Shown: in pieces, positions 1 through 23,604 of the stretch | Layout of the letters: each line of letters begins with the position of its first letter | How positions within the stretch are numbered: position 1 is the stretch's first letter | Source of the DNA: a virus | Virus record (IMG/VR): IMGVR_UViG_3300028883_000069 | DNA: 46,208 bases | Direction: 5' to 3' (one strand) | Program-made: the position numbers and the translations under genes | Notes under the pieces: model-generated | What the model saw: the letters and a program-made list of their open reading frames with translations, nothing else | The model's database searches: none | Told to the model about the DNA's origin: nothing

Positions 1-127
1 CAGACAGTCAAAGGTGATATGGTAATCTCTGATGGAGATCTAACAATCTCTGGAGGTGAGGTAGCATTAACAAGTGATGCTAATGCAGCAGGTTTAGTAA
101 TTGTTAACAATACAGTTACAACTGCTA
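1..127. repeat. terminal overlap of the contig (identical copy at 46082..46208); circular closure, unit genome 46,081 bp
   Basis: Bases 1..127 (cagacagtcaaaggtgatatgg...acagttacaactgcta) recur exactly at 46082..46208 when compared base by base. Confidence 0.95.
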
Positions 128-1131
128 ACTCGTTAGTCGATGTTTCATCAACCAGTATAACAACTGGAGCATTAATGAGACTTAACGCAAACTGTGCAAG
201 CCACTCTGGTGAAGTATTGGAGGTAATCTCCGCAGCACCAGCAGCTGGAACAGCAACGGGTATTAGCGTAACTATGCCAGACATAACAACTGGTGCAGCA
301 ACAGGCATTAGCGTTGTAATGGCAAAAGCCACAACAACAGCTAAAGGTATATCCGTAACTATGGATAAGATTACCGCAGGTGATATGCTTTACTTAGATG
401 CAGGTGGAGGCACACTTAACGGTGGATTCTATATTAACTGTAATGACGACAATTCGTCAGACTTTACGGTTGGTAATGGTGGAGCCACTGTTATTACAGG
501 TGTCGCAGCAGGAACAGCAGCTTTAACAATCACAGCAGGTGACTTAGTTATTACTGACTCTGACGCTTCAACAATTAGTTCTGTAAACGGAACAACCTCA
601 TTACTTACACTTGATAACGAAGGTGGAGTAATAGGTAGTGACGCAGCAGTGCTAGATATAGACGCAGGTGGAGCAGTAGCCTCAGGAGGTAATCTCCTCA
701 GGGTTGCAGCGACTGGTACTCCAAATTCAGGCGCTATTGGTATGGAATTTGTAGGGGGCGGAAAAGACCTACAGGCTCTCTACATTGATGTAGACCCAAC
801 AGTAGCTTCCGCAGTACTATTCCACTCGCAGGGTGCTTTGGCAGCCGATAAGGCAACCTTAGAACTTGTAAGTGATGTAGCTTCTTGTGATGCAGACAGT
901 TCTGTATTAAGAGTAACTCAGGATTCGACCACTGGTGTGGCATTCTGTATGACACTTGTACAGGACGACGTTTCGGAGCCATTTATAAACTTCGAATGCA
1001 CAGCCGCTACAGGAAACTCAATTGATGAAACTAACGATACTGAAGGTACAGCCGTTGGATTCCTCAGAATAGCTGTTAATGGTACAGATAGGTATCTATC
1101 TTACTATGCAGCTCCAACAGTTGGTGGATAA
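1..1131 (+). CDS. C-terminal part of wrap-around Thr/Ser/Ala/Gly-rich beta-helix-like fibre protein (gene begins at 45080, about 710 aa in total)
   Basis: The frame of ORF 19..1131 is open from base 1. It is the frame of the ATG at 45080 once 46082..46208 is laid over 1..127. The sequence is repetitive and T/S/A/G-rich (GISVTM x3, LT..G.LT motifs). It lies directly downstream of the major capsid gene. Confidence 0.85.
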   Translation, partial: QTVKGDMVISDGDLTISGGEVALTSDANAAGLVIVNNTVTTANSLVDVSSTSITTGALMRLNANCASHSGEVLEVISAAPAAGTATGISVTMPDITTGAATGISVVMAKATTTAKGISVTMDKITAGDMLYLDAGGGTLNGGFYINCNDDNSSDFTVGNGGATVITGVAAGTAALTITAGDLVITDSDASTISSVNGTTSLLTLDNEGGVIGSDAAVLDIDAGGAVASGGNLLRVAATGTPNSGAIGMEFVGGGKDLQALYIDVDPTVASAVLFHSQGALAADKATLELVSDVASCDADSSVLRVTQDSTTGVAFCMTLVQDDVSEPFINFECTAATGNSIDETNDTEGTAVGFLRIAVNGTDRYLSYYAAPTVGG

Positions 1132-1207
1132 CATCTGTTGATAGGTTAAACGTTTTACGGGGGGAGAGGCTTATAGTCTTTCCCTCTGTAGGACAAAATG
1201 AAAATAC

Positions 1208-1215
1208 TGTATAAT
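1208..1215 (+). promoter_or_regulatory. TGTATAAT extended -10-like box (candidate -35-less late promoter)
   Basis: Intergenic, 33 nt upstream of ATG 1248. The same TGTAWAAT box sits in three other structural-module intergenic gaps (7217, 11653, 15744). No TTGACA-like -35 is present. Confidence 0.3.
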
Positions 1216-1247
1216 AAAAAGTTAAATAATTTATTACTTAAAGTAGT

Positions 1248-1568
1248 ATGAAAGTTAAATTATCTGTATTAGAGCGAATTACACTGCTCGGAATCCTTCC
1301 TTCAATGGAAAACTATGCGACAATAAAGGTCGTGTCAGACATACACTCAAAACTGGGTATAGACGACAAAGAGGCTAAGGCTATAGACTTCGTAGTTAAA
1401 GGAGAAAGAGTAGAATGGGACATAGCAAAAGCAAAGGATAAAGAGTTCGAGATAGGTGCTTTTGAGTCAGACATTATCAGACTCGCTCTAGAGAAATTAG
1501 ATAAAGAAAAGAAACTAGAACCACGACACATTTCCTTATGGGAGAAGTTTGTGGAAAGAAAAGAATGA
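1248..1568 (+). CDS. hypothetical protein (106 aa), translationally coupled to the downstream glycosyltransferase
   Basis: ORF in the operon. Its TGA stop overlaps ATG 1565 of the next gene (ATGA). Confidence 0.7.
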   Translation: MKVKLSVLERITLLGILPSMENYATIKVVSDIHSKLGIDDKEAKAIDFVVKGERVEWDIAKAKDKEFEIGAFESDIIRLALEKLDKEKKLEPRHISLWEKFVERKE

Positions 1569-3544
1569 AAGACTTCACAATAGCAGTCAGTATGATTGTT
1601 AAAAATGAAGAAGCTTTGTTAGCCCGTTGCTTAGAGTCGGTTAAAGACTTTGACGATATATACATATTAGACACGGGAAGTGAAGACAACACGGTAGAAA
1701 TTGCCAAGGAATACACTGAACACGTTTATACTGACTATAAATGGGAAGATTCTTTTTGTAAGGCTAGAAATCATATTCTTAAAAAGGTTCCTAAAAAACA
1801 CGAGTGGATACTCAGTATAGACGCTGACGAGTATTTGGTAAATACCTACGACCAAGTTAAAAGGGTCTTAGAACAGGCAGAGTCTAAAGTGGTTAATGTA
1901 AAACTTAAAGCCGAGAGTACAGGTGCTATACACAACTTCACAAGACTATTTAGAAACGACCCAGAGATTTTCTGGGTAAATGATATACATAACCTGCTTA
2001 ATAAAAACTCCAGAGAGTATAGTGATATAGAGATAGTTTATGGATACTCTCCAGCACACAAAAAAGACCCTGACAGAGCGTTAAGGATCTTGGAGAAGTC
2101 TGTAAAAGATAATCCTAAGAAAAGTAGAGAAAAGTATTACTTAGCAAGGGAATATTACTATCGCAAATGGTGGAGTAGAGCTATTGAAATGCTTGATGAT
2201 TATATAGCGTGTTCTAACTATTTAAGTGAAAAGAATGACGCTTGGCTTATGAGAGCAAAGTGCTTGGCCAAACTTAAAAGATATAACGATGCTTGCGACA
2301 GTGCTTGGCAGGCGATTAAGTACAATGCTAATTTCAAGGAGGCCCTTAGGTTTATTGGAGACCACATGGACTCTGGTAATAAGCCTGTGTGGTATAAATT
2401 TGCTGATATAGCTGATAATAGAAATGTCTTGTTTGTGAGGGATAAAAAGACACTTGCCCCTATGGACTTAAACCCAGATGGGTTGTTTTACTTTAGGAAT
2501 CTCTTAAAGCGGTTTGATAAAGCAGATGTTTTAGAGTGGGGAAGTGGAAGAAGTACAAAGTATTTTCCTGAGTTTTTACAAGAGAATAATATTGAGTATA
2601 CGTGGCACGCTATGGAGCACGATAAAGGCTGGTATGACCATGTTAAAGATTTTAATACTAAGGGGGTAGAACTTACCTTTGGGGATAAAGATTCAGACGA
2701 TTACCTTAAACCAGAGGGTAAGTATGACGTTATTTATGTGGACGGAAGAAATAGAGTTAAGTGCTTACAGTATGCCAAGGAAATACTAAAACCTGGCGGG
2801 TTTGTATTGCTCCATGATGCACAAAGAGAAAGGTATAAGGAAGGCTTTGAAGGATACGATTGGAGGTATATAGGGAATAGTCCACCTTTACTATGGGTCG
2901 GTCAGTTAGAAGAGATGGTAACCATACCAAGGATTATTCACCAGATGTGGGTGGGACCTAAGGAAAGACCAGGAACCATGGATTCCTGGAGGGATAAGAA
3001 CCCTGGATTTGAGTATATGTTATGGACAGAAAAGGAAATAGACGAGCTTGGGTTGGTTAATAAGAAGGCTTATGACACGTATATGAAAGACGAGTGGTAT
3101 TCTGGGGCTAGTAATGTTGCTAGGGTAGAGATTTTAAATAAGTATGGTGGAATATTTATTGATGCGGACACAAACTGTGTAACACCGTTAGAGAATGCTC
3201 CCTTTATGGCTTGGGATTTCTTTGCAAGTTATGCTGTGGACGGAGATAGTAGACTGGCTAACTCTCCCATAGGATGCACTCCTGGGCATAAGTATATAAA
3301 AGAGTTTATTAAAAGAATCAAGGAAGCCAAAGAGTTATATCCTTCACACAAGAAAACAGGACCAGCAGTATTGACCGAAATTGTTGACGACAAGAACAAA
3401 GTTTTACCTGCGTACGCCTTTTTACCGATATTTCACAGGGGGCATAAGAACAAGAGGATTGGGCTTAACTATAGTGAACATTATTGGGCGACTACGAACG
3501 ACATACGTTCTGGAGAGGTTGTAATTCCCCAAAATAAAATGTAA
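1565..3544 (+). CDS. four-module enzyme: GT2 glycosyltransferase - TPR-like spacer - class I SAM methyltransferase-like - GT32 (DXD sugar-binding) glycosyltransferase
   Basis: GT2 motifs ILDTGSEDNT and SIDADE. Helical YYLAREYYYRKWW region. Rossmann motifs LEWGSGRST, VIYVDGRNR, GGFVLLHD. GT32 motifs IIHQMWVG and NVARVEILNKYGGIFIDADT. The ORF track starts at 1538, but ATG 1565 forms an ATGA overlap with the upstream stop. Confidence 0.8.
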   Translation: MKDFTIAVSMIVKNEEALLARCLESVKDFDDIYILDTGSEDNTVEIAKEYTEHVYTDYKWEDSFCKARNHILKKVPKKHEWILSIDADEYLVNTYDQVKRVLEQAESKVVNVKLKAESTGAIHNFTRLFRNDPEIFWVNDIHNLLNKNSREYSDIEIVYGYSPAHKKDPDRALRILEKSVKDNPKKSREKYYLAREYYYRKWWSRAIEMLDDYIACSNYLSEKNDAWLMRAKCLAKLKRYNDACDSAWQAIKYNANFKEALRFIGDHMDSGNKPVWYKFADIADNRNVLFVRDKKTLAPMDLNPDGLFYFRNLLKRFDKADVLEWGSGRSTKYFPEFLQENNIEYTWHAMEHDKGWYDHVKDFNTKGVELTFGDKDSDDYLKPEGKYDVIYVDGRNRVKCLQYAKEILKPGGFVLLHDAQRERYKEGFEGYDWRYIGNSPPLLWVGQLEEMVTIPRIIHQMWVGPKERPGTMDSWRDKNPGFEYMLWTEKEIDELGLVNKKAYDTYMKDEWYSGASNVARVEILNKYGGIFIDADTNCVTPLENAPFMAWDFFASYAVDGDSRLANSPIGCTPGHKYIKEFIKRIKEAKELYPSHKKTGPAVLTEIVDDKNKVLPAYAFLPIFHRGHKNKRIGLNYSEHYWATTNDIRSGEVVIPQNKM

Positions 3545-3580
3545 TATGAAGTAGTACTTAAATTAAGTATTTAGGACGGT

Positions 3581-3913
3581 ATGAGTATAACACATAACTC
3601 AGATGGTAATGCGAAGCATAGTCCAATTTATTCCTGGGCCTCAGGAACAGTAACAGTAGCAGGTGCTGCAGCAGGAACGGACCTTACTGGGATTACAGGT
3701 TTTACAACCATTCTCAGTCAGTTTTCAGATGCTGGTAGGAAGCCAAGATATATTAAAGTATCGGCTTCTGCAACTTTGTACGTCAAGATCAATAGTGGGG
3801 ACACAATTACTGTAGGTTCCACTACGCCATTTGAGGCATTTGACTTAGAAGTTAACAGTATTACTGTTTCTTCTGGTGGCGCTGGTGTTACAACCACAGT
3901 GCACTTACAGTAA
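3581..3913 (+). CDS. hypothetical small beta-rich protein (110 aa), structural module
   Basis: ORF in the co-oriented operon with T/S/G/A-rich composition. Confidence 0.65.
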   Translation: MSITHNSDGNAKHSPIYSWASGTVTVAGAAAGTDLTGITGFTTILSQFSDAGRKPRYIKVSASATLYVKINSGDTITVGSTTPFEAFDLEVNSITVSSGGAGVTTTVHLQ

Positions 3914-3939
3914 GGTATTTTAAATTAGTTTTAATTAGT

Positions 3940-4449
3940 ATGACAGAAGCCGAAGTTAAAAGAGAGGAGGTCAGAAAACTAAATCTCAAAGTTGACGAGC
4001 TTAAAAAAGAAACAATCATCTTTCGTGAAGAGACTTCTAAAATGAAGGAAGAGTTTGAAGCGAATAAGGAAAAGTTAGAAAAGGCAGAAGAAGAGGCTAA
4101 GGCGAAGTTGGCTGTAGTGGAGGATTTAGTAAAGAAGGTCGGAGTTCAGCAAAGCGAGCTTGCTAAATATGAGGAAATGAGAAATAGTATTTCAGATGAG
4201 TATTCTAAGTTGTCTAAAGAGGTAAAGAGTCTTGAGGCAAAAAGAGATTCTCTTAAAAAAGAGTTGTCTGATTTACAGGGTAAAATAAATGCTTTAGAAG
4301 GAGAGTATAGGGAAGACCAGATTTCTTCAAAGGCATTATTGGATAGCCTAAAATCTTTTGAGAGTGAGCTGGAAATTAGAAAGGCTGAATTGGACAATAG
4401 AGAGAAGGTTTTAGATTTAAGAGAAAGAGGCATCCAAATAGACAACTAA
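3940..4449 (+). CDS. coiled-coil protein (169 aa, K/E-rich heptads)
   Basis: Continuous K/E/L-rich sequence typical of a coiled coil (KLNLKVDELKKE..., LEKAEEEAKAKL...). Confidence 0.7.
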   Translation: MTEAEVKREEVRKLNLKVDELKKETIIFREETSKMKEEFEANKEKLEKAEEEAKAKLAVVEDLVKKVGVQQSELAKYEEMRNSISDEYSKLSKEVKSLEAKRDSLKKELSDLQGKINALEGEYREDQISSKALLDSLKSFESELEIRKAELDNREKVLDLRERGIQIDN

Positions 4450-4466
4450 AATAAGTAATTTGGAGC

Positions 4467-4769
4467 ATGGCAGTAGTTGAGGACAAAATTATCAAAATTG
4501 TTGACGAATCTACGCACACTAGGGGTGCTAGTGTTGAGCAGGTTAGTACACAGGGAGCCTTGATAGTTAAAGATCTATCAGGACAAAGTGTGAGTAGTAT
4601 TCCAGGCTTAGGAGTTCCCCCGAGCGATTATATTGCGGTCACGTACCCAGACGGAGACACAGAGGTTTATACCTATAAGAGTGGTGGAGCTACTGGGGAC
4701 ACGGTTGCGACTATTACGTGTGTGTATACTGACGGTAATTTAACTTCAGTAACAAGGACAGACCCATAA
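4467..4769 (+). CDS. hypothetical protein (100 aa)
   Basis: ORF preceded by a GGAG-type RBS, in the operon. Confidence 0.65.
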   Translation: MAVVEDKIIKIVDESTHTRGASVEQVSTQGALIVKDLSGQSVSSIPGLGVPPSDYIAVTYPDGDTEVYTYKSGGATGDTVATITCVYTDGNLTSVTRTDP

Positions 4770-4770
4770 A

Positions 4771-5346
4771 ATGTTTAAGTTTAATCCACTTAGTGGCAAT
4801 TTAGATTATTATACAGAGACTGATATTTCAGGTAAGGCTGATTTTCTCGTAGATACAAAAACTAATATATTTGCAGAGAGCCCAGATGCAGGGACAATAG
4901 CGTTTTCAACAGATAATAGTAGGTTTTATATGTACGATGGAAGTGGGTGGCATGGTGCAAGAATAAGTTATGGAACGCCAAGTACAGGAGTTGATATGGG
5001 TGCTTTCCCTTATGAGGATGATTCTGGCTATGGAGATGTTAATTTAAGTAATAAAATACTACATAACATTATTGTCTCATATTTTGATGAATCTGCTATG
5101 GGAGTTACAGATGGTGCTATGCGATATTCTAGTGGGTTTTTACAGATATATGTTGATGGGAGTTGGTTAAATGTATACCCATTAAGTGCTTTTGAGTTTG
5201 AAGATAGAATGTTATGGAGTGATAGCTGGCAGGAGTATGATTATTACGGGAAGAATATAATTCATGGTAGTAAGGTAGACATGGGTGTTTTTGCTGGTGA
5301 CCATTTAATAGATGGGGGTTTAATTTCTGAACAGGTAGTAACATGA
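4771..5346 (+). CDS. hypothetical protein (191 aa), fibre module
   Basis: ORF starting 2 nt after the upstream stop. Confidence 0.65.
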   Translation: MFKFNPLSGNLDYYTETDISGKADFLVDTKTNIFAESPDAGTIAFSTDNSRFYMYDGSGWHGARISYGTPSTGVDMGAFPYEDDSGYGDVNLSNKILHNIIVSYFDESAMGVTDGAMRYSSGFLQIYVDGSWLNVYPLSAFEFEDRMLWSDSWQEYDYYGKNIIHGSKVDMGVFAGDHLIDGGLISEQVVT

Positions 5347-5633
5347 ACAAAATAGAGTATGAAGAAGGTAAGTTTTTAATTTATGATAACAACCCTTTAA
5401 AAGGTAGGGTTGTTGAGGAGGATAGAGTTAAGGAGGAGCAAACGTTTTTAGAAGGAGAGATTGAAGAGTTAGAAAAGATTTATAATGATGACAAGAAATT
5501 ATTGGAGTGGGCAAAAGATATGTATCCAATAGTTTCTGGGTTGGAAACCGTTAGGGAGAATAAGGAAAAGATTGACAAAGACTTGTCAGAAATAAGTTTA
5601 ATAAAGGAAGAAAATGTCAACATATTACGTTAG
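5343..5633 (+). CDS. hypothetical coiled-coil protein (96 aa)
   Basis: ATGA overlap with the upstream gene. E/K-rich sequence. Confidence 0.65.
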   Translation: MNKIEYEEGKFLIYDNNPLKGRVVEEDRVKEEQTFLEGEIEELEKIYNDDKKLLEWAKDMYPIVSGLETVRENKEKIDKDLSEISLIKEENVNILR

Positions 5634-6408
5634 AAAATCGGGCAACGATAGCAACGGTGGTACAGACCCAGACACAGATGCAAAATTAACCATAGCTAGT
5701 GCAGTAAGTGCTTCAAGTAATGATGACACTATTGATATAGGTGAGGGTACTTGGGAAGAAACAATTAACGCACAGAGGACATTTCTTGGTGTAAATATGG
5801 ACAAAACTATTTTAAGCTCTGCTCATACAAGTATAACTTGGAGTGGTTATACAATTGCTTTTCAAAATATTCGGCTCATATTAACAGGTGATTTGTCCGA
5901 GATGCTTCCAACAACTTTGTCCTTCATAAACAGTTTTATAGACTTTTCGGGAATAATAGATGCAAATATACTTTGGAGAATGGATGCCGCAGGAGAGACA
6001 TTAACTATGACTAATTCAATATTTTATGGTAGTGCTGTAGTAGAAGCAATTGTTCCACAGCTGCTGCGCCTTGGTGCAGCAAACACAGCAGTTGTTACAA
6101 ATTGTGTTTTTTATAGGTTTACTGATGCTAACTGGGTAAGAAACTCTGATGCTACAGTAAACGTAACCATGAAAAATTGCATCTTTTATAATGTTACTAG
6201 TTTTAAACCTGCTAATACTGCGGCTGAATGGACTTATGAAGATTATAATTGTTGGTATAGTAGTGGTGGTACTGTAAGCGAAACAGGGTTTTCTGGTGGA
6301 GAGTATGGTGAACACGACATTCTTGTAGACCCGTTGTTTGTAGATGCAGATGGGGGAGATTTCAGACTACAATCTAGTAGTCCGTGTATAGGTGCGGGAC
6401 ACGCTTAA
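5614..6408 (+). CDS. right-handed parallel beta-helix (pectate-lyase-fold) protein, possible depolymerase or tail spike accessory
   Basis: N-terminus YYVRKSGNDSNGGTDP...TIASAV...DDTIDIGEGTWEE and C-terminus DPLFVDADGGDFRLQSSSPCIGAG are hallmark ends of beta-helix repeat proteins. Confidence 0.7.
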   Translation: MSTYYVRKSGNDSNGGTDPDTDAKLTIASAVSASSNDDTIDIGEGTWEETINAQRTFLGVNMDKTILSSAHTSITWSGYTIAFQNIRLILTGDLSEMLPTTLSFINSFIDFSGIIDANILWRMDAAGETLTMTNSIFYGSAVVEAIVPQLLRLGAANTAVVTNCVFYRFTDANWVRNSDATVNVTMKNCIFYNVTSFKPANTAAEWTYEDYNCWYSSGGTVSETGFSGGEYGEHDILVDPLFVDADGGDFRLQSSSPCIGAGHA

Positions 6409-6424
6409 ATTGAGTAATTAGAAA

Positions 6425-7198
6425 ATGGGTGTAACAAAGGATGTAACAAGAATAATACTAAGAAGGGGTGACGATGACGATTTCACAAACGAAATTGCTG
6501 ATACTGGCATTACGCAGTATGAGGGAGAACCTAAGTGGAACACAGACGGAAAACAGTTGTATGTTTATGACGGGACTAACAATGTAAGAGTACCTACGGA
6601 GAACGCAGACAGCAAGGTAGATTTAACTAAGATAGAAATGCAGGATAGTACCCTACTTGAAACCCCAGTAACTGGCACTATTGAGTTTGATGATGATAGA
6701 CTTTATGTAACAAATGTAGGTACACAAAGATCAATAGATAGAACAAGTGATGTTGCTTTGTCATCCGTAGCTTGTGCCAATACTACTGACGAAACTACTA
6801 TGTGGACTGGAACTATTGGTGCTAACGACTTAAAAGTAGGTAATATTTTAAAAGTTACAGCACACGGGCAAATAAGTAACAACAGTAGTGCAGATGTCTT
6901 AACGCTCAAGTTTTACATAGGTGCTACAGAAATAGCTACTATAGATTCGCCAGGAAAGAACCTTGACGCCGATTGTTGGGCTGTTGAGTTTCATTCTACG
7001 GTTAGAAGTGTTGGTGAAAGCGGTGTTCTTGGAAGGTGGCTTAAAATGGAAATAGAAGACGATGCTAATGTAACCTGTGGTACGACAAGTGTAGACACAA
7101 CTGGAGCTTCTAATATAACGATAACAGCACAATGGAACAATGCTAAGGAAGATAACACTTTTGGGTTAGGTTTAGGTTGGTTAGAATTTAAAAACTAG
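6425..7198 (+). CDS. hypothetical tail-fibre-associated protein (257 aa)
   Basis: ORF directly upstream of the collagen-like fibre. It carries a fibre-like motif EGEPKWNTDGKQLYVYDG. Confidence 0.6.
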   Translation: MGVTKDVTRIILRRGDDDDFTNEIADTGITQYEGEPKWNTDGKQLYVYDGTNNVRVPTENADSKVDLTKIEMQDSTLLETPVTGTIEFDDDRLYVTNVGTQRSIDRTSDVALSSVACANTTDETTMWTGTIGANDLKVGNILKVTAHGQISNNSSADVLTLKFYIGATEIATIDSPGKNLDADCWAVEFHSTVRSVGESGVLGRWLKMEIEDDANVTCGTTSVDTTGASNITITAQWNNAKEDNTFGLGLGWLEFKN

Positions 7199-7216
7199 GC
7201 GAGATAATTTAAAAAA

Positions 7217-7224
7217 TGTATAAT
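7217..7224 (+). promoter_or_regulatory. TGTATAAT extended -10-like box (candidate late promoter of the collagen-like fibre gene)
   Basis: Lies in the 83-bp AT-rich gap upstream of ATG 7282. Same box as at 1208. Confidence 0.3.
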
Positions 7225-7275
7225 ATATAAATTAAGATTAGTATATTCCTCAAGCAGTAGACAGTAGGAAGTTGA

Positions 7276-10626
<3,351 letters not shown>

Positions 10627-10648
10627 GATAATTTAACTAAACAATAAA

Positions 10649-11293
10649 ATGGCATACCCAAACACAATCGACAGCTTAACAAATCCAACAAGTTCAGATA
10701 CTCTGGACAGTCCAAGTCATAGCGACCAGCATAGTGACGCAAATGATGCTATAGAAGCCTTAGAGGCTAAGGTAGGGGTGGACAGTAGTGCAGTAACAAG
10801 TTCTCACGATTATAAGATAGACGCTTTAGAAACAGATGTAGCGAGTATGGTCGAAACAGTTATAGGAACTATTTATCCTGTAGGGGCTATATATACCTCA
10901 ACCCTATCTACTAACCCAGAAACACTTTTTGGTTTTGGCACTTGGGAGGCATTTGGAGAGGGAAAAGTTCTTGTTGGGTTAGATAGCGAAGATGGAGACT
11001 TTGATGAAGTGGAAGAAACGGGTGGATCAAAGACAATTACACTAACTGAGGCCCAAATGCCAGAGCACACTCACGTACAAAATGCCCACGGTCACAGTTT
11101 TAATGTCTCAAGGGTAACGGCCTTTGCAGGAACAGGCTCAAACGAACCAACACAGTCCGCCACATCAGATAGGTCATGGCAGACCATTACAATTGCAAAT
11201 GCAACAGCAACAAACCAGAATACGGGGGGTGACGAGGCACACTCTAACCTACAACCTTACATCGTAGTATATATGTTTAAGAGAACAGCATAA
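10649..11293 (+). CDS. phage tail collar domain fibre protein
   Basis: Fibre-type N-terminus (PNTIDSLTNPTSSDTLDSPSHSDQHSDANDAIEALEAKVG) and tail-collar motifs (IYPVGAIYTS...FGFGTWE...GGSKTITLTEAQMPEHTH). Confidence 0.8.
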   Translation: MAYPNTIDSLTNPTSSDTLDSPSHSDQHSDANDAIEALEAKVGVDSSAVTSSHDYKIDALETDVASMVETVIGTIYPVGAIYTSTLSTNPETLFGFGTWEAFGEGKVLVGLDSEDGDFDEVEETGGSKTITLTEAQMPEHTHVQNAHGHSFNVSRVTAFAGTGSNEPTQSATSDRSWQTITIANATATNQNTGGDEAHSNLQPYIVVYMFKRTA

Positions 11294-11631
11294 TGGCAAC
11301 AGTAACAGACTTAACAGGAAGTTCAGAAACATTAACAGACGAAACCTCTGTTAGTAATGGCACAGACTCAAACATAAATGTTTACGAGTTTGGTAATTTA
11401 CTTTTGGCAGGTTTACTTTCAGCAATTTCTGGCTGGGGGTTAGGTGCTACCGAAGTTGTATCAGGCTCTATAAGTGCAAGTGACGTAGTAGGAGGAAGTG
11501 TTACGGAATCTGATAAGACTTTAAGTAACTCGGAGGTTTACGATTTCTCAGATTTTACTTATGACCGCTCAGGAGTTACTTATGATGGAATAAGGCTTAC
11601 TGGAGCTGTTACAGACGAGGATGGGTCGTAA
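11293..11631 (+). CDS. hypothetical protein (112 aa)
   Basis: TAATG overlap with the upstream gene. S/T/G-rich. Confidence 0.6.
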   Translation: MATVTDLTGSSETLTDETSVSNGTDSNINVYEFGNLLLAGLLSAISGWGLGATEVVSGSISASDVVGGSVTESDKTLSNSEVYDFSDFTYDRSGVTYDGIRLTGAVTDEDGS

Positions 11632-11652
11632 TTGGCAAAGCTGGTAAATAAA

Positions 11653-11660
11653 TGTAAAAT
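11653..11660 (+). promoter_or_regulatory. TGTAAAAT box within the shared 12-mer ATGTAAAATATA (candidate late promoter)
   Basis: The 12-mer ATGTAAAATATA is identical at 11652 and 15743. Both copies are intergenic and upstream of operon segments. Confidence 0.3.
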
Positions 11661-11687
11661 ATATACATAAATTAATATAACTATCCA

Positions 11688-12620
11688 ATGACATTTATAA
11701 ACATTAAGAACAGGATAGCTTCAAACATAGGATATGTAGATTCTTCGGGGGATATACTTGCCTCCAAAGACGTTACAGAAACAGATATAGGCAACTGGGT
11801 TAACGATAGATACATAGACGATTTGTTTTCTGCACTATCAACACAATACCCAGAGGACTACAAACAGGAGGGGAAACTCAATTTTTACAAGACTTCTGGC
11901 ACAGCCAGTTCAAGTTCTACCTCATCAACCTTAGTAGCCACGGGGAATATATTCAATAATGGTATGGTGGGTGATACAGTATACAATTCTACTGACGGAG
12001 CTACTGCAGAGGTTACAGCATACAGTTCAGCCACTACAGTTACAGTAGATACTGAGATTGATGACGATTGGGACGGAGACACTATTTATGTACTAGGACA
12101 CGAGTTTGGTTTAGGGGGCAATGCTACTGACGCGAGAAGTATTACGAGGGTTGCAGTTAAATATGACAGTGACGACGATTACTACACAACCTGTAGGCAA
12201 ATGACTAAGAACAAGGTTTATGAGGCGGGAAACGAGGTTTATTACGAGTCTGACCCAATATGGTATCCAACCACAGTAGACGTAAGTTCAACACCAACAA
12301 GTGCAATAGGAATACTACCAGAACCAAGTGAAGCAGTTTCAAGTGGTATTTTAATTGAGTATATAGAACAGCCTTCTTCTTTAAGCTCAGACAGTGACGT
12401 ACCAAGACTACCACTAGGTAGCCATAGTATTCTTGTCTGGGGAGGTACAGCAAGTGCAATGCGTAAACTTATGCGTCTTGACGAGGCAGACAGGTACGAG
12501 CAGTTATACCAGGCGAGTAAAAGAGAAATGATTGCTGAGTATGCACTAACAAGAGGTAGTGGAATACCAAGAGTAAGACCCCCACGAAGACTCAGAAGAA
12601 TGGTGGATAGAGATAAATGA
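11688..12620 (+). CDS. virion structural protein candidate (310 aa; adaptor/tail component?)
   Basis: ORF with a basic C-terminus (RVRPPRRLRRMVDRDK). ATGA coupling to the next gene. Confidence 0.65.
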   Translation: MTFINIKNRIASNIGYVDSSGDILASKDVTETDIGNWVNDRYIDDLFSALSTQYPEDYKQEGKLNFYKTSGTASSSSTSSTLVATGNIFNNGMVGDTVYNSTDGATAEVTAYSSATTVTVDTEIDDDWDGDTIYVLGHEFGLGGNATDARSITRVAVKYDSDDDYYTTCRQMTKNKVYEAGNEVYYESDPIWYPTTVDVSSTPTSAIGILPEPSEAVSSGILIEYIEQPSSLSSDSDVPRLPLGSHSILVWGGTASAMRKLMRLDEADRYEQLYQASKREMIAEYALTRGSGIPRVRPPRRLRRMVDRDK

Positions 12621-14278
12621 ATAGAAACATAGAACCAAAAATCATTTGGAAGCAAAACCTCTCAGGAGGTATAAATCAATCGGTTGATAATCAATTGGTT
12701 GAAAACAACGAGTCACCCTTGCTTAAAAATATTATACTCGATAAGAGAGGTAATTGGGCTTCAAGAAAAGGTACAGACAAGTTAGGCAATACCACAGCAG
12801 GCAGTGACCAAGTTTATGGTTTAGGTACCTATGATGAGACCGACGGAACACACACGTTCTTTCGGGTTTGTAATAGAGACCTAGAGAAGTTTAATGGAAC
12901 AGATACTTGGAGTGCAGTTGATACAGACGAGTGGCCAGCCAGTATGAAAGTTAATATGGTTAACTTCCTAGACAGAATGTACTTGGGCAGTGAGGACGGT
13001 GGAACAGCCTTAGCCTACACTACAGGAACTACGATTACAGACGTGACCCCAGAGATAGGGGGACACTTTTTAGCAGTTAACAAGGGTAGATTGCTAGTGG
13101 GGGGTAACGATATGCTGCCAAATGTGATACTTATAAGTTATCTTGGAACTGATACATTTTATGACTCCACTGGAACGTGTGCGGCAAATGCTGATTCTGG
13201 TGGTGCTAATACTGTAACTACAACAACAGAGATATTTGAGGCTTGGTACGAAAACAATGCCTATATTTATAATACTGATACAGACGAACTACACTTTATT
13301 ACAGGGTTTACTGACGGGGACACGGTTACTACAGACGGGTCCACTTCAGCCTGGGATAATGACACGGTATATGTTTTACCTTTTTACTTTCAACTGGAAG
13401 GTGCTTGTACAGGATTAACAACATTCCAAGGGAATTCTATAGCATTTGACGAGGATAATATGTATATCTGGGACCCAGGTTCAACGTGGTCTCAAAAAAT
13501 GCCAGGGTTTGGGTGTGTTAACGAAAGGACTATTAAGAATGTAAGTGGTTATTTGATTTGGGCAGACAGAGAGGCTGTGTATTTGTACGACGGGTCGAGT
13601 AGACCAATAGATATTTCTCAAAAGATTAAAGATCCTGTAGACGGGTATGGATTGTTTGATTTAATTAATCCAGCTAATTTCAGTCAGCTTGCAGCAGGTG
13701 CGTTTGACGGAAAATACTATTTGTCGGTGGGGGATTTAAGTACCCAAACAGGTGCACCAGCAAGTGCTATAACTAATGCAGAATTTGTGTTTGATGTTGA
13801 GGCTAACTCCTGGACACTAAACTCAAGAGATGATGAGCCTGTAGTATATTCTACTTTTATAAACAGTTCAGGGAGTAAGGATTTGTATTATGGAGAAGAA
13901 ACCAACCTAGCAGTGTATAAAATGAATACAGGCACTACTGACGACGACAGTGATGGAGATGCTGGTGCGTTTACCGTTGAGGCTAGAACGCCACACTACA
14001 CTTTTGCAGACCCGACAGTACAATATAGAATATCAGCCTTTTATGTGAAGTATAAATCAGGGGGAAATATTACAGTGACCTATAGTGCAGATGGAGGAAG
14101 TTATGCTTCTTTAGACACACTATCTAGCAGTTCTACTACGACGGTAGAAAAGATTTTACCTGTGACTGAATGCCATGGGTTTACACATTCTTTGAAGTTT
14201 GTATGTTCAAGTACAATGGAAATTGAGGCTGTAGGGTTTATGGCTTCTCCGATAAGTTTTGGTAGCGTAGCAACATAA
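12617..14278 (+). CDS. virion structural protein candidate (553 aa; tail/nozzle-like?)
   Basis: Large ORF in the tail module. No motif was recognised by eye. Confidence 0.7.
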   Translation: MNRNIEPKIIWKQNLSGGINQSVDNQLVENNESPLLKNIILDKRGNWASRKGTDKLGNTTAGSDQVYGLGTYDETDGTHTFFRVCNRDLEKFNGTDTWSAVDTDEWPASMKVNMVNFLDRMYLGSEDGGTALAYTTGTTITDVTPEIGGHFLAVNKGRLLVGGNDMLPNVILISYLGTDTFYDSTGTCAANADSGGANTVTTTTEIFEAWYENNAYIYNTDTDELHFITGFTDGDTVTTDGSTSAWDNDTVYVLPFYFQLEGACTGLTTFQGNSIAFDEDNMYIWDPGSTWSQKMPGFGCVNERTIKNVSGYLIWADREAVYLYDGSSRPIDISQKIKDPVDGYGLFDLINPANFSQLAAGAFDGKYYLSVGDLSTQTGAPASAITNAEFVFDVEANSWTLNSRDDEPVVYSTFINSSGSKDLYYGEETNLAVYKMNTGTTDDDSDGDAGAFTVEARTPHYTFADPTVQYRISAFYVKYKSGGNITVTYSADGGSYASLDTLSSSSTTTVEKILPVTECHGFTHSLKFVCSSTMEIEAVGFMASPISFGSVAT

Positions 14279-14535
14279 TGGAAATCAGTATAGACACACA
14301 GACAATTAGTGAAGCAGGGTTTGACACCTATTTGACTAGGGCGGTGTTTGGTGAGGTGTCGGCAAGTATTAATTTAGCTACTCGTTATACTGATGCTAGT
14401 AACTTAGTTGGTGGGATTATAGGGAGTGAGGGAGTTATTTATCTAGGGAGTAAGCAGATTAAGTTAGACGGAAAAAATAAAAGAATAGTTATTAGTGACG
14501 GTGTAAACGATAGAGTTCTCATAGGAGGCTTCTAA
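14278..14535 (+). CDS. hypothetical protein (85 aa)
   Basis: TAATG overlaps on both sides. Confidence 0.6.
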   Translation: MEISIDTQTISEAGFDTYLTRAVFGEVSASINLATRYTDASNLVGGIIGSEGVIYLGSKQIKLDGKNKRIVISDGVNDRVLIGGF

Positions 14536-15278
14536 TGAGTGCAGGACTTAAGGTTAGTAGAAAAGGCTTTGATGTAAATAAGGCCAGTGATAAGCAGTTG
14601 GCCTTTAGCAGTGAGTGGCCACTATTGCCAATTGAGGCAGAGGGAACCAAGGCTGTTGTTAAAAACACTTCTTACGATGAAACTTTATATACCCATGGTT
14701 TAGGTTATGTTCCAGTATTTATGTATTGGTTTGAGGTTAGTAGCAAGTTATATCCTATAAGCGACTTTATATATTTTAATATTTGGGCAGATGATACGGA
14801 GTTATATTTAGACGATACTCCATTAACAAGTTCTGGAACCATACACTGGAAGGTGTTTAGGAGAGATATGTTGACAGAGTATGATTCAGGTAATTTACAA
14901 TCAACAGATGCTACAGAAACTGACAGTGCAGACATAGGGTTGTTAGTTAGTAATCCAGGTAGTGACGTGTGGTCTAGTGACTTAAGGGATTTTTCTGTGC
15001 GAAGTGATATGCGACAATTAATGATACATAAGACTGGGTATTTTGACGACAGTACAAACGGTGCAGAAATTACGCATAACTTGGGATATAATCCTATGTA
15101 TTGGTTTTATGTCGCCAATACTGACAGAAATGGTGCAGGGGAGTATTCTCTAGCATATCAAGCAGACGATTTTGTGGTATCAGCTTCAGACACGACCTTG
15201 ACATACACTTATTTTGGCTTTCCTTTTTTTTATACAGCCTATTTAATTTTTAAAGACCCCGTAAACGAGGTAGGATAA
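14535..15278 (+). CDS. structural protein with two copies of a TH.LGY.P-containing domain
   Basis: THGLGYVP (14691..14714) and THNLGYNP (15072..15095) each lie in a half of about 120 aa. Confidence 0.7.
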   Translation: MSAGLKVSRKGFDVNKASDKQLAFSSEWPLLPIEAEGTKAVVKNTSYDETLYTHGLGYVPVFMYWFEVSSKLYPISDFIYFNIWADDTELYLDDTPLTSSGTIHWKVFRRDMLTEYDSGNLQSTDATETDSADIGLLVSNPGSDVWSSDLRDFSVRSDMRQLMIHKTGYFDDSTNGAEITHNLGYNPMYWFYVANTDRNGAGEYSLAYQADDFVVSASDTTLTYTYFGFPFFYTAYLIFKDPVNEVG

Positions 15279-15718
15279 TGGGAGTAGTAAGTACATCAGA
15301 CGACAAATTATTTATAAGTAGTCTACCTGGATACAGTGCCATTACAGACGACCAGGAAGATATGGCTGTCCACAGTGGGTTTGAATACCCTAAAATGGAT
15401 GAAGATTTGGTTGGAACAATAGAATACACAGTGCCAGCTTATACGAGTGACCAAGATTACACGATTACTACAGTTACACACAATTACGGGTATATGCCAC
15501 TTTGCCAATGCTTTGTTGAAGATTTGGACGGAATGATGCCTACTGAATTTGCAATTCTACCCCTTTATGATGGTTTTACAGCATCTAGGTTTATTTGTTA
15601 CACAACTACAACTCAGTTTGTTTTAATTTACAAGGCAATTACTGCTGCCCCACTTGCTAGTCCACAGTGGGACGGTAGTGATTGGTTGTTCAAATACCAG
15701 ATCTGGGCGAATGACTAG
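15278..15718 (+). CDS. structural protein with a third copy of the TH.(L/Y)GY.P domain
   Basis: THNYGYMP at 15476..15499. TAATG overlap with the upstream paralogous gene. Confidence 0.7.
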   Translation: MGVVSTSDDKLFISSLPGYSAITDDQEDMAVHSGFEYPKMDEDLVGTIEYTVPAYTSDQDYTITTVTHNYGYMPLCQCFVEDLDGMMPTEFAILPLYDGFTASRFICYTTTTQFVLIYKAITAAPLASPQWDGSDWLFKYQIWAND

Positions 15719-15743
15719 ACTTTATATAATTTATAATATAATA

Positions 15744-15751
15744 TGTAAAAT
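15744..15751 (+). promoter_or_regulatory. TGTAAAAT box within ATGTAAAATATA (candidate late promoter)
   Basis: AT-rich 76-bp gap upstream of ATG 15795. The 12-mer is identical to the one at 11652. Confidence 0.3.
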
Positions 15752-15794
15752 ATAAGTAGCAGTAGTATGACTCGGTAAATTTACATAATAAAAT

Positions 15795-16520
15795 ATGGCA
15801 TACGACACATATACTGTTAAACGCGGCGACAGTCTTTCTAAAATAGCAAAACAGTTAGGACTTGGCAGTTGGAGAGAACTTTATGAACTCAACAAATCTG
15901 TTATAGGTTCTAACCCTAGTTTAATATACTCTGGACAGACATACAATATCCCTGGCACAAATGTACCTGCTCCTACACAAACACCACCTCCTGCCCCAGT
16001 ACAAACACCAGCACCAGCACAAGAAACCCTTTCCAGGCAATATACAAACCCATTTACAGGTCAATTAGAAAGAGCTGCTGAACTTCCTCAATTTGAGAAT
16101 CTTACAGGTGGTTCTTTTAAGAATGTCTGGGGAGATACTTTTGCACAACCGACGTCTGAACTAGCAGTACAGCAGATTCGCCCAGAGTATGAAAGAATGT
16201 ATGAAAGGAACGCTTATGATTACCTAAACAATTTATACGGCCAAGGTGGACAAAGAATGGGCACTGGACCAGGGGGAGGTATAGGTAATGTTAGAGCAAC
16301 GTCTAATAGGGCGTACAGTGATATGTATAACGACTGGATGGAACAGCAATATCAGAATCTTTATCAAAATTGGTATGAAAGAGCAAGGCAGTCTTGGAAT
16401 GAGGGTAGAACGCAGGCCAATTTTGAAAGTGATGCTGACTTATATAAGATTCCGACATTAATGGAGTATGGGGACAAATATTTAAATGACTATTCTCCAG
16501 AAAGTGTATCGTTGTTTTAA
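15795..16520 (+). CDS. LysM domain protein with Pro/Thr-rich linker (peptidoglycan-binding virion/ejection protein candidate)
   Basis: N-terminal LysM motif YTVKRGDSLSKIAKQLG...LYELN...IYSGQTYNIPG, followed by PAPTQTPPPAPVQTPAPAQ. Confidence 0.8.
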   Translation: MAYDTYTVKRGDSLSKIAKQLGLGSWRELYELNKSVIGSNPSLIYSGQTYNIPGTNVPAPTQTPPPAPVQTPAPAQETLSRQYTNPFTGQLERAAELPQFENLTGGSFKNVWGDTFAQPTSELAVQQIRPEYERMYERNAYDYLNNLYGQGGQRMGTGPGGGIGNVRATSNRAYSDMYNDWMEQQYQNLYQNWYERARQSWNEGRTQANFESDADLYKIPTLMEYGDKYLNDYSPESVSLF

Positions 16521-16537
16521 TTTATGAAAATAGACAA

Positions 16538-17368: not shown

Positions 17369-17388
17369 ATTAATTAATAAAAACAATA

Positions 17389-19674: not shown

Positions 19675-19675
19675 A

Positions 19676-20116
19676 ATGAAAGAAATAACAGAAAAAAGAG
19701 TACGTGCAATAGCAAAGGAAGAGAGTGAAAAAGCCTGTGCGCAGCGTATGAAAGAAATAGAGACTCAATTAATGGCAAACAGTAAAACTTTAGCTAAGAT
19801 TGAAAGGTTGCTACTGGGGGAATTTGGTGATTCAGGCGAAGCACTAAAGGCTAAGGCTACCTTTGCTTACCAGTATGCCAAACATAATACGGACTTAAAA
19901 ATTGTTGACAGAGCCTTACCTGCCCTAATTTGGTTTGAAGATATGAGCAGAAAAGAGCCAGGGTGTGAAGAAAGTAAATTAGACACTCTTGGTAGAATCA
20001 TAAGTGCATACACAAGTTTAAAGTGGATTTTGAGACTAATTGGGTTTACGTCGATACTTAATTTAGTTCTTTCTATAGAACCTATAGTTGAATTAATTAG
20101 AAGTTTATTCCAATGA
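19676..20116 (+). CDS. hypothetical protein with hydrophobic C-terminus (146 aa)
   Basis: Starts 2 nt after the upstream stop. The C-terminal WILRLIGFTSILNLVLSI is hydrophobic. Confidence 0.6.
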   Translation: MKEITEKRVRAIAKEESEKACAQRMKEIETQLMANSKTLAKIERLLLGEFGDSGEALKAKATFAYQYAKHNTDLKIVDRALPALIWFEDMSRKEPGCEESKLDTLGRIISAYTSLKWILRLIGFTSILNLVLSIEPIVELIRSLFQ

Positions 20117-20155
20117 AATTGTTATTATCATTAAATTGTTTGGTAGCAAAGTAAA

Positions 20156-20869: not shown

Positions 20870-20912
20870 TATAGGGTATTAAGGTTATATAACTTATATG
20901 TTACTATGACTT

Positions 20913-22044: not shown

Positions 22045-22071
22045 GTTTATATAAATTAATTTACAGGTTTA

Positions 22072-22428: not shown

Positions 22429-22440
22429 GCAACCAATTAC

Positions 22441-23403: not shown

Positions 23404-23473
23404 ATTGATAGGGCTACTTACGGGTAGTCCCAATGAGTCTACAACTCTGTAGCTCTTTAACAAGGGAGGTCTG

Positions 23474-23602: not shown

Positions 23603-23604
23603 AT

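Follow-up and report, generated by a model that had tools for sequence, protein, structure and literature searches.

The viral sequence described here (IMG/VR record IMGVR_UViG_3300028883_000069), whose full 46,208 nucleotides are referred to as the window, carries among its virion genes a single open reading frame (orf) that joins two glycosyltransferases and a methyltransferase, and raises the question of what such an enzyme modifies. The gene lies on the forward strand at 1565..3544 and encodes 659 aa, which the orf listing, Pfam, homologue alignment, and AlphaFold2 resolve into four modules: GT2, TPR, Methyltransf_24, and GT32-like. The longest frame listed runs from 1538 to 3544 (668 aa); the 659-aa product begins at the ATG at 1565, which aligns with the start position of the homologues and is preceded by the purine-rich stretch GGAAAGAAAAG. 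This ATG overlaps, as ATGA, the TGA (1566–1568) of an upstream gene (1248..1568, forward strand) coding for a 106-aa charged helical protein, as the initial annotation had noted in describing the enzyme gene as translationally coupled.

The gene for the major capsid protein (43937..44914, forward strand; HK97/Mu gpT-like) opens a conserved block of capsid gene, post-capsid gene, glycosyltransferase gene, and fibre gene. The post-capsid gene encodes a 710-aa Thr/Ala/Gly/Ser-rich protein and occupies 45080..46208 and then 1..1131 on the forward strand; because bases 1–127 are repeated at 46082–46208, the orf wraps around the window ends (45080..46081 + 1..1131). The enzyme gene had been placed directly after this orf, which was called a Thr/Ser-rich fibre; the orf is present, but the 106-aa gene intervenes, and the fibre label has behind it sub-threshold beta-solenoid matches only, there being no family match above threshold in PHROGs or Pfam. 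The 710-aa protein is probably a head-proximal fibre or decoration. Downstream, a collagen-like tail fibre of 1114 aa (7282..10626, forward strand), recognised by its triplet count and N-domain homology, contains 215 G-X-Y triplets, among them 100 GPT and 180 GxT; Thr makes up 22.9% of the protein and 82% of the triplet Y positions. A collagen-like fibre does lie downstream of the enzyme gene as first described, at a distance of eight genes and 3.7 kb, but its G-P-T triplets number 100 and not hundreds.

From the capsid gene to the fibre the genes are tightly packed as a virion operon, with intergenic gaps of -20 to 165 nt. Promoter- and terminator-like sites in 1–11500 are fewer than in shuffled sequences, with none above the shuffled expectation; this lack of internal transcription signals is consistent with one operon and is otherwise uninformative. 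The small flanking orfs (106, 110, 100, 191, and 96 aa) match nothing above threshold in PHROGs or Pfam. The downstream 110-aa protein was considered as a counterpart of a conserved 121-aa protein (c8) of the relatives and rejected, at an hhalign probability of 0.2%.

Profile searches and structure prediction for each module had been suggested with the claim of a four-module orf of about 660 aa, and both bear it out. Glycosyltransferase and methyltransferase domains are found by Pfam, the AlphaFold2 model is confident (mean pLDDT 88.6) and shows four folded units, confidence dropping in a linker at residues 294–296, and each module is backed by Pfam, the model, and Foldseek. All of the quoted motifs are present—DTGSEDNT (residue 36), IDADE (85), LEWGSG (323), VDGRNR (392), LLHD (415), and IHQMW (458)—and IDADT is found at 532. 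The catalytic motifs are all invariant among 28 full-length homologues of 41–75% identity. Together these results support four genuine modules, each kept by purifying selection.

The GT2 catalytic domain, of GT-A fold, spans residues ~5–160 (1577..2044, forward strand) and is recognised by homology to GmaR and SunS and by Pfam Glycos_transf_2 (PF00535; residues 9–107, E 4.9e-13, 49.8 bits against a cut-off of 23.3); D36-T-G-S-x-D41-x-T43 and D86-A-D88 are invariant in the 28 homologues. It is followed by a TPR-like helical domain at residues ~164–283 (2054..2413, forward strand), with Pfam TPR/ANAPC3 matches at ~151–267, model helices at 171–282, and Foldseek support. Module 2, a class-I SAM methyltransferase-like Rossmann domain, occupies residues ~304–447 (2474..2905, forward strand). 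Its match to Pfam Methyltransf_24 (PF13578; residues 323–418, E 2.6e-6) is marginal at 28.7 bits against a cut-off of 26.3, Foldseek finds the 2gpy O-methyltransferase and TrmR (~5e-7), and E324-W-G326-x-G328, E351, D393, and H417-D418 are invariant or nearly so in the homologue alignment, D393-G-R-N396 being conserved. On sequence and model we assign it to the class-I SAM-dependent methyltransferase family, with predicted SAM binding.

Module 3, at residues ~455–641 (2927..3487, forward strand), is a GT32-like retaining-type GT-A domain with a DXD motif, the designation "GT32-like" following from the Pfam signature Gly_transf_sug (PF04488; residues 469–544, E 2.2e-11, 44.7 bits against 23). 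H459-Q-x-W462, R520, and D533-A-D535 are invariant in the 28 homologues, SetA is matched in sequence (E 3e-9), and Foldseek returns YeGT, SetA, and PaTox (~1e-7). SetA (Legionella), YeGT (Yersinia), and PaTox (Photorhabdus) share the GT-A DXD and a relationship to Pfam Gly_transf_sug/TcdA_TcdB, but they are secreted toxins or effectors that act on eukaryotic host proteins. Because these nearest solved folds are toxins that glycosylate proteins directly, the GT32-like module may act on protein and not on glycan; the resemblance may reflect only the dearth of solved GT32 structures.

The TPR domain had been read as a helical spacer. The comparisons argue otherwise, since GT2 and TPR behave as one unit: Foldseek alignments to SunS/ThuS (E 1e-17) run for 275–290 columns across both parts. 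The best sequence match among solved structures is the GT domain of GmaR (E 1.5e-22, residues 6–182), and SunS also matches the GT2 module (E 3e-12). The TPR domain is probably the part of the unit that binds the acceptor protein. Homology to GmaR and SunS/ThuS, at an identity of the enzyme to characterised enzymes of only 25–31%, supports placing the GT2+TPR unit in a clade in which every characterised enzyme has a protein or peptide as its substrate for glycosylation; SgtA of C. difficile would join this clade only through its shared architecture and gene context (PMC7157674).

The SunS relationship raises the idea that the enzyme makes a glycocin in the manner of SunS, by S- or O-glycosylation of a small antimicrobial peptide that the phage encodes and that is secreted, as with sublancin of SPbeta. 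SunS/ThuS, which are peptide-directed and in the SPbeta prophage of Bacillus phage-borne, are the best fold matches, the SunS family (TIGR04195) is the best NCBIfam match, and SPbeta yolJ/sunS is among the 23 matches, all partial and of 25–42% identity, obtained by tblastn of the enzyme against 50,697 phage records. The TIGR04195 score, however, is 62.2 bits against an equivalog cut-off of 350, and by sequence the enzyme is thus related to SunS yet no SunS equivalog. SunS and ThuS also differ in S-glycosylating Cys of a small bacteriocin; no bacteriocin genes were seen among the neighbouring orfs, neither one for a small Cys-rich precursor nor one for an ABC exporter, and neither the extra methyltransferase and GT32 modules nor the collagen association described below is a glycocin feature. 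We consider a glycocin synthase extremely unlikely.

Phage glycosyltransferases are classically DNA-modifying (PMC10202952, PMC12619734), and a DNA methyltransferase is encoded at 36320–37447 (orf scan), which would fit an enzyme that glycosylates and methylates the phage's own DNA, hypermodifying bases to evade restriction. The 20 further orfs scanned contained neither a hydroxymethylase nor any other enzyme of base modification, and gave only the DNA methyltransferase, an HNH endonuclease, exonucleases, and regulators. With a predicted protein-binding TPR unit, homology to protein glycosyltransferases, and a gene located in the late structural operon and not among replication genes, DNA modification was deemed very unlikely.

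No 19-residue stretch of the enzyme reaches the hydrophobicity of a membrane helix (maximum Kyte-Doolittle 0.96), which supports a soluble protein. This bears on the proposal that the target is a host molecule—teichoic acid, LPS/capsule, S-layer protein, or flagellin—modified to block superinfection or to keep progeny from sticking to debris. Pathways for cell-envelope polysaccharides commonly include enzymes of the GT2, GT32, and Methyltransf_24 families, several homologues bear the JGI name "glycosyltransferase involved in cell wall biosynthesis", and GmaR, the best solved relative, acts on the cellular protein flagellin. Yet there is neither a membrane segment in the enzyme nor a flippase or lipid-carrier gene nearby, and the gene is coupled inside the virion operon, not in a lysogenic-conversion position. 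The close relatives recovered (44–99% identical) come from viral or metagenome contigs, while a scan of the genome collection found no close copy in cellular genomes (best 40% identity, nothing above), and what recurs beside the gene is a collagen-like gene of phage. A host target is unlikely on this evidence.

Megablast of positions 1–25000 against the 50,697 phage records gave no match; related loci were available in IMG/VR. In 44 of 80 of these loci the GT2-TPR gene has a collagen-like gene no more than two genes away, compared with 17.2 for random gene positions in the same loci, the loci being phylogenetically related. Dereplication at 60% identity leaves 27 clusters, of which 15 have a collagen-like gene within two genes and 20 within five; seven have none in the fetched locus. 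Overall, 66% of the triplet Y positions in these collagen-like genes are Thr. In L001, whose glycosyltransferase and capsid protein are 75% and 84% identical to those described here, a single 121-aa gene separates enzyme and fibre; the N-terminal domain of the fibre described here is 78% identical to that of the fibres in L001 and L015, both of which lie one small gene away from a GT-module gene. Three more divergent four-module loci with different neighbouring virion genes (L178, L179, and L180) have G-x-T collagen genes two to four genes off, and no GT2-TPR gene was found within 10 kb of homologues of the fibre N-domain that lack collagen repeats. The GT2-TPR gene thus tracks Thr-rich collagen-like genes across many phage backbones, a pattern supported by these counts, although adjacency may partly reflect a shared module location since both types of gene live in structural modules.

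The association is neither necessary nor sufficient. Both L006, where the enzyme is of the four-module kind, and L007 carry the enzyme yet show no collagen-like gene, over 14.5 kb and 7.7 kb respectively, and L164 has a near-identical fibre N-domain and G-x-T repeats without GT2-TPR, carrying instead a GT4-like gene and a small methyltransferase. An alternative reading is glycosylation of virion proteins with a different main acceptor, for which the 710-aa protein, the capsid protein, and small proteins of the head or neck rich in Ser/Thr are candidates. The enzyme gene sits between the capsid and 710-aa genes and the tail genes, closest to the 710-aa orf; in many relatives the glycosyltransferase gene is one or two genes after the capsid gene, beside the small Ser/Thr-rich proteins c25 and c8; and L006 combines the enzyme with a capsid gene and a c8-like gene in the absence of a collagen gene. 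Mycobacteriophages provide a precedent, with glycans on the C-termini of capsid and tail-tube proteins (as cited in PMC12619734). The post-capsid gene, however, is not conserved (a 98-aa collagen-like product, or 143–168, 321, 559, or 710 aa), and in L003–L005 and L011 its product is itself GPT collagen-like; c8 is present in L164 as well, which lacks the GT2-TPR enzyme; and the sole neighbour recurring across unrelated gene contexts is the G-x-T collagen-like gene. We regard a different main acceptor as rather unlikely.

The comparison with related phages suggests that the phage may sugar-coat its own collagen-like fibre. The initial annotation had the enzyme build a short, O-methylated glycan on the phage's own Thr-rich fibres, a reading that is supported in part: the modules, solubility, virion-operon location, protein-glycosyltransferase clade, and collagen-gene association speak for it, while the eight-gene distance to the fibre and the exceptions L006, L007, and L164 speak against. 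On balance we lean, by a modest margin of confidence, towards a soluble, late-made enzyme that O-glycosylates the phage's own structural proteins, most likely on Thr of the collagen-like G-x-T repeats, and we infer its acceptor, donor sugars, methylation target, and biological role as follows. The enzyme, with its three catalytic activities, would be made late, together with the virion proteins, and would act in the cytoplasm, either ahead of assembly or while it proceeds. The main acceptor would most likely be Thr in the Y position of the G-x-T repeats that make up the collagen-like part of the fibre at 7282–10626, with the Thr/Ser-rich post-capsid protein of 710 aa as a possible second. The TPR domain would grip the acceptor polypeptide while the GT2+TPR unit places the first sugar on Thr. 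On the model of SgtA and GmaR, this sugar would probably be a HexNAc supplied by a UDP-sugar. The GT32-like DXD module would add a second sugar, and before or after this step the Methyltransf_24 module would use SAM to O-methylate the glycan. The modification would be likely to stabilise or hydrate the hydroxyproline-free triple helix, protect against proteases, or alter what is presented at the fibre surface.

The initial annotation drew its analogy with glycosylated BclA of Bacillus; C. difficile SgtA/BclA3 is a more exact parallel and better takes its place. SgtA is a 358-aa protein (GT 1–260, TPR 262–358) whose gene adjoins bclA3, and it puts beta-O-GlcNAc on Thr of GPT collagen peptides in vitro (PMC7157674). 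Bacillota genes of the same GT-A (GT2)-then-TPR arrangement are homologous to residues 2–259 of the enzyme (29% identity over 268 aa, E 7e-25, for a collagen-adjacent one); five loci have such genes of 366–380 aa beside BclA-like GPT collagen genes, and two others have longer genes (653 and 727 aa) in that position. SgtA differs in being stand-alone, cellular, and active on a spore-surface protein, whereas the present enzyme is phage-encoded and fused to a methyltransferase and a second glycosyltransferase, its presumed acceptor being a virion fibre. GmaR, the cytoplasmic flagellin O-GlcNAc transferase and MogR anti-repressor of Listeria monocytogenes, likewise has GT then TPR (PMC9638930), but these are followed by linker and anti-repressor domains, it acts on flagellin, and it has neither methyltransferase nor GT32.

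A single polypeptide of this kind had been thought unusual. It is less so than claimed, given multi-domain glycosyltransferases of uncultured phages already in BFVD and the precedent of chlorovirus PBCV-1 A064R, a cytoplasmically acting 638-aa protein whose two GT domains and SAM methyltransferase assemble and methylate a portion of the glycan on the virus's own capsid (PMC9614988). A064R, and with it A111/114R, is likened to the enzyme by function, as a single-chain assembly line for virion decoration; it differs in belonging to a eukaryotic giant virus, in its N-linked glycan and GT-GT-MT order, in having no TPR unit, and in extending rather than initiating. Mycobacteriophages of the Che8/Corndog/Myrna type glycosylate virion proteins with their own glycosyltransferases (PMC12619734, PMC11256854, citing Freeman et al. 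2023); there the glycosyltransferases are separate genes and the acceptors are C-termini of capsid and tail-tube proteins. The tblastn search of the 50,697 phage records gave no Mycobacterium-phage match at E ≤ 1e-5. In the limited literature searched, no paper was found that connects GT-TPR enzymes to collagen-like fibres of phages.

The modules attached to GT2-TPR vary. Fusion partners among the 42 sampled include Methyltransf_24 (11), GT32 (9), Methyltransf_23 (6), and PIG-L (4), as well as FkbM methyltransferase and GT64; in P0041 a hexapeptide acyltransferase replaces the methyltransferase, and tailoring modules of relatives are also found split off as separate genes. PIG-L is the GlcNAc de-N-acetylase family, so this partner fits a HexNAc as first sugar. 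The family is large: searched with the four-module profile at E ≤ 1e-30, it counts 7,008 representatives, and the top ones match mainly through the GT2-TPR part.

To our knowledge, self-glycosylation of tailed-phage virions has so far been documented mainly in a few mycobacteriophages. Tentatively, and with rather less confidence than for the fibre as acceptor, we propose that SgtA-like GT2-TPR initiators, joined to tailoring modules that are freely exchanged (methyl-, acyl-, and glycosyl-transferases, deacetylases, and sugar-nucleotide enzymes), may form a widespread, undescribed phage system that coats Thr-rich collagen-like fibres with lineage-specific O-glycans, of which the enzyme described here would be the most compact, single-polypeptide form. 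Such a system would provide a mucin-like, rapidly diversifying glycan surface, stabilising the Hyp-free triple helix and tuning adsorption or recognition. Decoration of the fibre would extend SgtA/BclA3 spore-coat chemistry to phage fibres and, as Thr-rich hydroxyproline-free collagen repeats are common in these, would explain how such repeats are stabilised or masked. The single-chain enzyme, which would initiate, extend, and methylate, and its putative acceptor 3.7 kb away would make a compact, testable pair for protein glyco-engineering, and a large, easily recognised gene family would become a predictor of glycosylated virions in metagenomes. Since a glycan coat influences adsorption and stability as well as antibody recognition and clearance, the finding would bear on phage ecology and therapy.

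Bases 1–127 of the window are identical to bases 46082–46208, and this 127-nt direct repeat indicates that the tailed-phage assembly is closed (circular or terminally redundant), with a length of 46,081 bp. Its late genes lie on the + strand and include those for the large terminase (37434), the portal protein (39780; the homologue in the related locus L001 has a precomputed SU10_portal match), and an HK97/Mu-gpT-like capsid protein (43937–44914), followed by a 710-aa Thr/Ala/Gly/Ser-rich ORF (45080..1131) that crosses the end junction. A 106-aa ORF comes next, then the enzyme gene (1565–3544), seven small or medium ORFs (3581–7198), and the gene for a 1114-aa collagen-like fibre (7282–10626), with that of a Gp10_C-type tail protein behind it. 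The initial annotation had set the 710-aa ORF directly before the enzyme gene, overlooking the 106-aa ORF; the fibre that it described is present downstream, but 3.7 kb away and with 100 GPT (180 GxT) rather than hundreds of G-P-T triplets. Elsewhere in the genome are a DNA methyltransferase (36320–37447), an HNH endonuclease (24801–25385), a protein whose N-terminal domain is of endolysin type (15795–16520), and another endolysin-like protein, which has a coiled-coil tail (20913–21971). The ORFs scanned included no integrase, and 50,697 deposited phage genomes contained no close relative of the window. Three iteron-like direct repeats of ~31 nt each (TATAGACTAGTATATACTG...) occupy an intergenic position (32648–32712) where minus-strand early genes diverge from plus-strand genes, and are a possible origin or operator.

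The enzyme gene had been read as one ORF of four modules coupled by an ATGA overlap, and both points are borne out: the ATG at 1565, the likely start, overlaps the stop of the upstream ORF to give a 659-aa product, in which Pfam, AlphaFold2 and Foldseek each recover GT2, TPR, methyltransferase and GT32-type parts. The Pfam matches are to GT2 at residues 9–107 (E 4.9e-13), TPR repeats at about 151–267, Methyltransf_24 at 323–418 (score just over threshold), and Gly_transf_sug, the GT32 signature, at 469–544 (E 2.2e-11). The AlphaFold2 model, with 28 homologues as input, has four folded units and a mean pLDDT of 88.6. Compared against the PDB with Foldseek, the first ~290 residues resemble the glycocin S-glycosyltransferases SunS and ThuS (E 1e-17), the middle resembles class-I O-methyltransferases (2gpy, TrmR), and the C-terminal part the DXD GT-A domains of SetA, YeGT and PaTox. 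All of the catalytic motifs are invariant across 28 full-length homologues (41–75% identity): DTGSxDxT and D86xD88 in GT2, E324-W-G-x-G328, D393 and H417-D418 in the methyltransferase, and HQxW, R520 and D533-A-D535 in the GT32-like module.

The TPR, at first taken for a spacer, forms a single unit with GT2 (GT2-TPR), as homology to GmaR and SunS and the build of SgtA indicate. Of the proteins with solved structures, Listeria GmaR matches best in sequence, through its GT domain (E 1.5e-22), with SunS next; assignment as a SunS equivalog was ruled out (62 bits, cut-off 350). GmaR, too, combines GT and TPR parts, and it attaches O-GlcNAc to flagellin (PMC9638930). In function, the nearest precedent for this unit is the SgtA/BclA3 pair of C. 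difficile, in which SgtA (CD3350) comprises a GT-A domain (1–260) and TPRs (262–358), is encoded adjoining bclA3, and in vitro transfers beta-O-GlcNAc onto Thr of GPT collagen-repeat peptides (PMC7157674). The enzyme's N-terminal unit has the same GT-A + TPR build, a likeness of architecture. To our knowledge, every characterised member of this architecture acts on polypeptide, in the cytoplasm. Modification of DNA by the enzyme is very improbable, base-modifying genes not having been found among the ORFs scanned, and a glycocin role, such as SunS and ThuS have, is more improbable still, as we noticed neither a precursor nor an exporter gene in the neighbouring ORFs.

Cellular genomes contain comparable pairs. 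Seven Bacillota loci among 185,579 species genomes scanned have a GT-A+TPR gene ~2 kb or less from a BclA-like GPT collagen gene; the GT-A+TPR product is 366–380 aa in five of the seven, and one of these GTs matches enzyme residues 2–259 (the GT and first TPRs) with 29% identity (E 7e-25). TPR_P4H is the collagen-peptide-binding domain of prolyl 4-hydroxylase, and the C-terminal TPR of one collagen-adjacent cellular GT (L091, a Bacillota MAG, 7995–9101) matches it below threshold (E 0.0014), a hint from sequence that the TPRs of such GTs may bind collagen-type chains; this match is absent from the window protein.

A scan of IMG/VR with the family alignment yielded eighty viral loci, whose ORFs were called and then clustered; a gene was counted as collagen-like if it had 10 or more G-X-Y triplets. 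Such a gene lies no more than two genes from GT2-TPR in 44 of these phylogenetically non-independent loci, against 17.2 by random placement in the same loci; after grouping at a GT identity of at least 60%, it is within two genes in 15 of 27 groups and within five in 20. Thr occupies position Y in 66% of the triplets overall and in 82% of those in the window fibre.

The nearest relatives make the link between enzyme and fibre specific. In L001, whose capsid protein and enzyme are 84% and 75% identical to those of the window, the capsid gene is followed in turn by a 559-aa homologue of the 710-aa ORF, a small ORF, the four-module enzyme, a 121-aa protein and a collagen fibre, the N-terminal domain of which is 79% identical to the window's; by comparison, the seven genes at 3581–7198 are an insertion that separates enzyme from fibre in the window. 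The four-module enzyme directly follows a small GPT collagen-like post-capsid protein in L003–L005 and L011, and in L003–L005 the long collagen fibre comes after it. More divergent four-module enzymes with other virion neighbours (L178, L179, L180) have G-x-T collagen genes 2–4 genes away. Conversely, among the matches to the N-terminal domain of the window fibre are six distant fibre homologues free of collagen repeats (L167, L168, L170, L172, L175, L177), and none of their fetched 10-kb flanks contains GT2-TPR. We consider it on balance probable that the enzyme glycosylates the phage's own virion and that the collagen fibre is a main acceptor, and rather unlikely that other virion proteins are the main acceptor. 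Modification of the host envelope or a host protein is less likely again, being disfavoured by this gene neighbourhood, by the operon position, and by the solubility of the enzyme, which lacks hydrophobic segments (Kyte-Doolittle peak of 0.96 over 19 residues).

The association of GT2-TPR with collagen is strong but non-obligatory, because exceptions occur. A collagen gene is absent from the 14.5 kb of L006, which has the four-module enzyme, and from the 7.7-kb contig of L007, and in 7 of the 27 groups none was found in the DNA fetched. L164 has a fibre with 95 triplets, mostly G-x-T, whose N-domain is 78% identical to the window's (capsid protein, 74%), and no GT2-TPR. Genes 3' of the L164 fibre encode a 206-aa protein with an apparent class-I methyltransferase glycine motif (14432–15052), a putative 402-aa GT4-like GT-B protein (15355–16563), and a BNR/sialidase-like protein of 368 aa, which would make up another set of glycan genes in the same structural module.

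Most post-capsid genes of this phage group have in common an N-terminal motif, M-x-x-T-H-[FYI]-x-G (the 710-aa protein at 45080, L001_9 at L001 7865, and the cluster c25 proteins of L015 at 9421 and of L075 at 9098), of which the 110-aa protein encoded at 3581 has a looser form. The remainders of these proteins are very unlike (143–168 aa, 559 aa, 710 aa), and the N-terminus is divergent where the slot holds a 98-aa GPT collagen-like protein (L004, 9546) or a 321-aa protein, beta-helix-like by eye (L164, 8495). The post-capsid protein has the look of an exchangeable fibre or head decoration, in many cases on a shared capsid anchor; SPP1 gp12, a collagen-like capsid accessory protein (PMC6316719), may be compared. 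In the window fibre, a ~50-aa Trp/Tyr-rich knot (residues ~497–550) breaks the collagen repeats; it has a weak CBM_5_12 match (E 0.005, below threshold) and is also present in the L004 and L075 fibres, twice in some.

GT2-TPR has a very wide distribution: when 1.84 billion cluster representatives were searched with the four-module profile, 7,008 matched at E <= 1e-30, of which the best 150 do so mainly at profile positions 1–295 and extend from 275–305-aa stand-alone proteins to 1000–2700-aa multi-GT proteins. The exact four-module form accounts for about three clusters at 50% identity. P0155, P0156, P0178, P0273 and P0286, in which GT2-TPR lies inside 1500–2742-aa proteins with 5–8 separately matching stretches, would be giant multi-transferase polypeptides. 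Fusion partners after the TPR in 42 sampled homologues are Methyltransf_24 (11), GT32 (9), Methyltransf_23 (6), PIG-L (4), Methyltransf_11 (4), FkbM methyltransferase (2) and GT64 (1), and in P0041 a hexapeptide acyltransferase fills the methyltransferase slot, the flanking modules unchanged. Other phages encode GT2-TPR as a separate 288–313-aa protein followed by separate tailoring genes (PIG-L+DUF6625, NDP-hexose C-methyltransferase, epimerase, or a 434–438-aa protein), and stand-alone Methyltransf_24-GT32, GT32 and Methyltransf_24 proteins are also found. The 434–438-aa proteins (cluster c56: L015 10900–12216, L028, L023/L025) have weak, sub-threshold N-terminal methyltransferase matches and unassigned C-terminal halves. 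L015 and L028 have capsid proteins 80–86% identical to the window's but GT2-TPRs only 52–55% identical, with other downstream partners, so turnover is quicker in the glycan-gene slot than in the phage backbone. Enzymes of the PIG-L family remove the N-acetyl group from GlcNAc conjugates, and their recurrence beside GT2-TPR would fit a HexNAc first sugar, as with SgtA and GmaR.

Beyond the modules and their conservation, which are established here, we propose an acceptor, sugars, an order of steps and a role. The TPR would grip the acceptor chain and the GT2 domain set the first sugar, probably a HexNAc, on Thr of the G-x-T repeats; the GT32-like module would attach a second sugar and the methyltransferase cap the glycan. 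By analogy with Thr-glycosylated Hyp-free collagens and with BclA, triple-helix stabilisation and hydration, with fibre masking or altered recognition, is a plausible role.

The closest precedent for a single-chain GT/GT/MT protein is PBCV-1 A064R, whose three domains (638 aa) build and methylate a capsid glycan (PMC9614988). Mycobacteriophage virion glycosylation is the closest tailed-phage precedent, as cited in PMC12619734; among 50,697 phage records the mycobacteriophage GTs have no detectable similarity to the window enzyme. Unannotated multi-domain GTs of uncultured Caudovirales in BFVD align over about 725 columns. No paper tying phage collagen-like fibres to GT-TPR enzymes was found in the literature searched. 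Neither the enzyme chemistry nor the notion that a virus encodes the glycosylation of its own virion is new; the phage setting, the association with a collagen fibre, and the four-module fusion are undescribed in that literature. The neighbourhood pattern is noteworthy to specialists and open to direct test.
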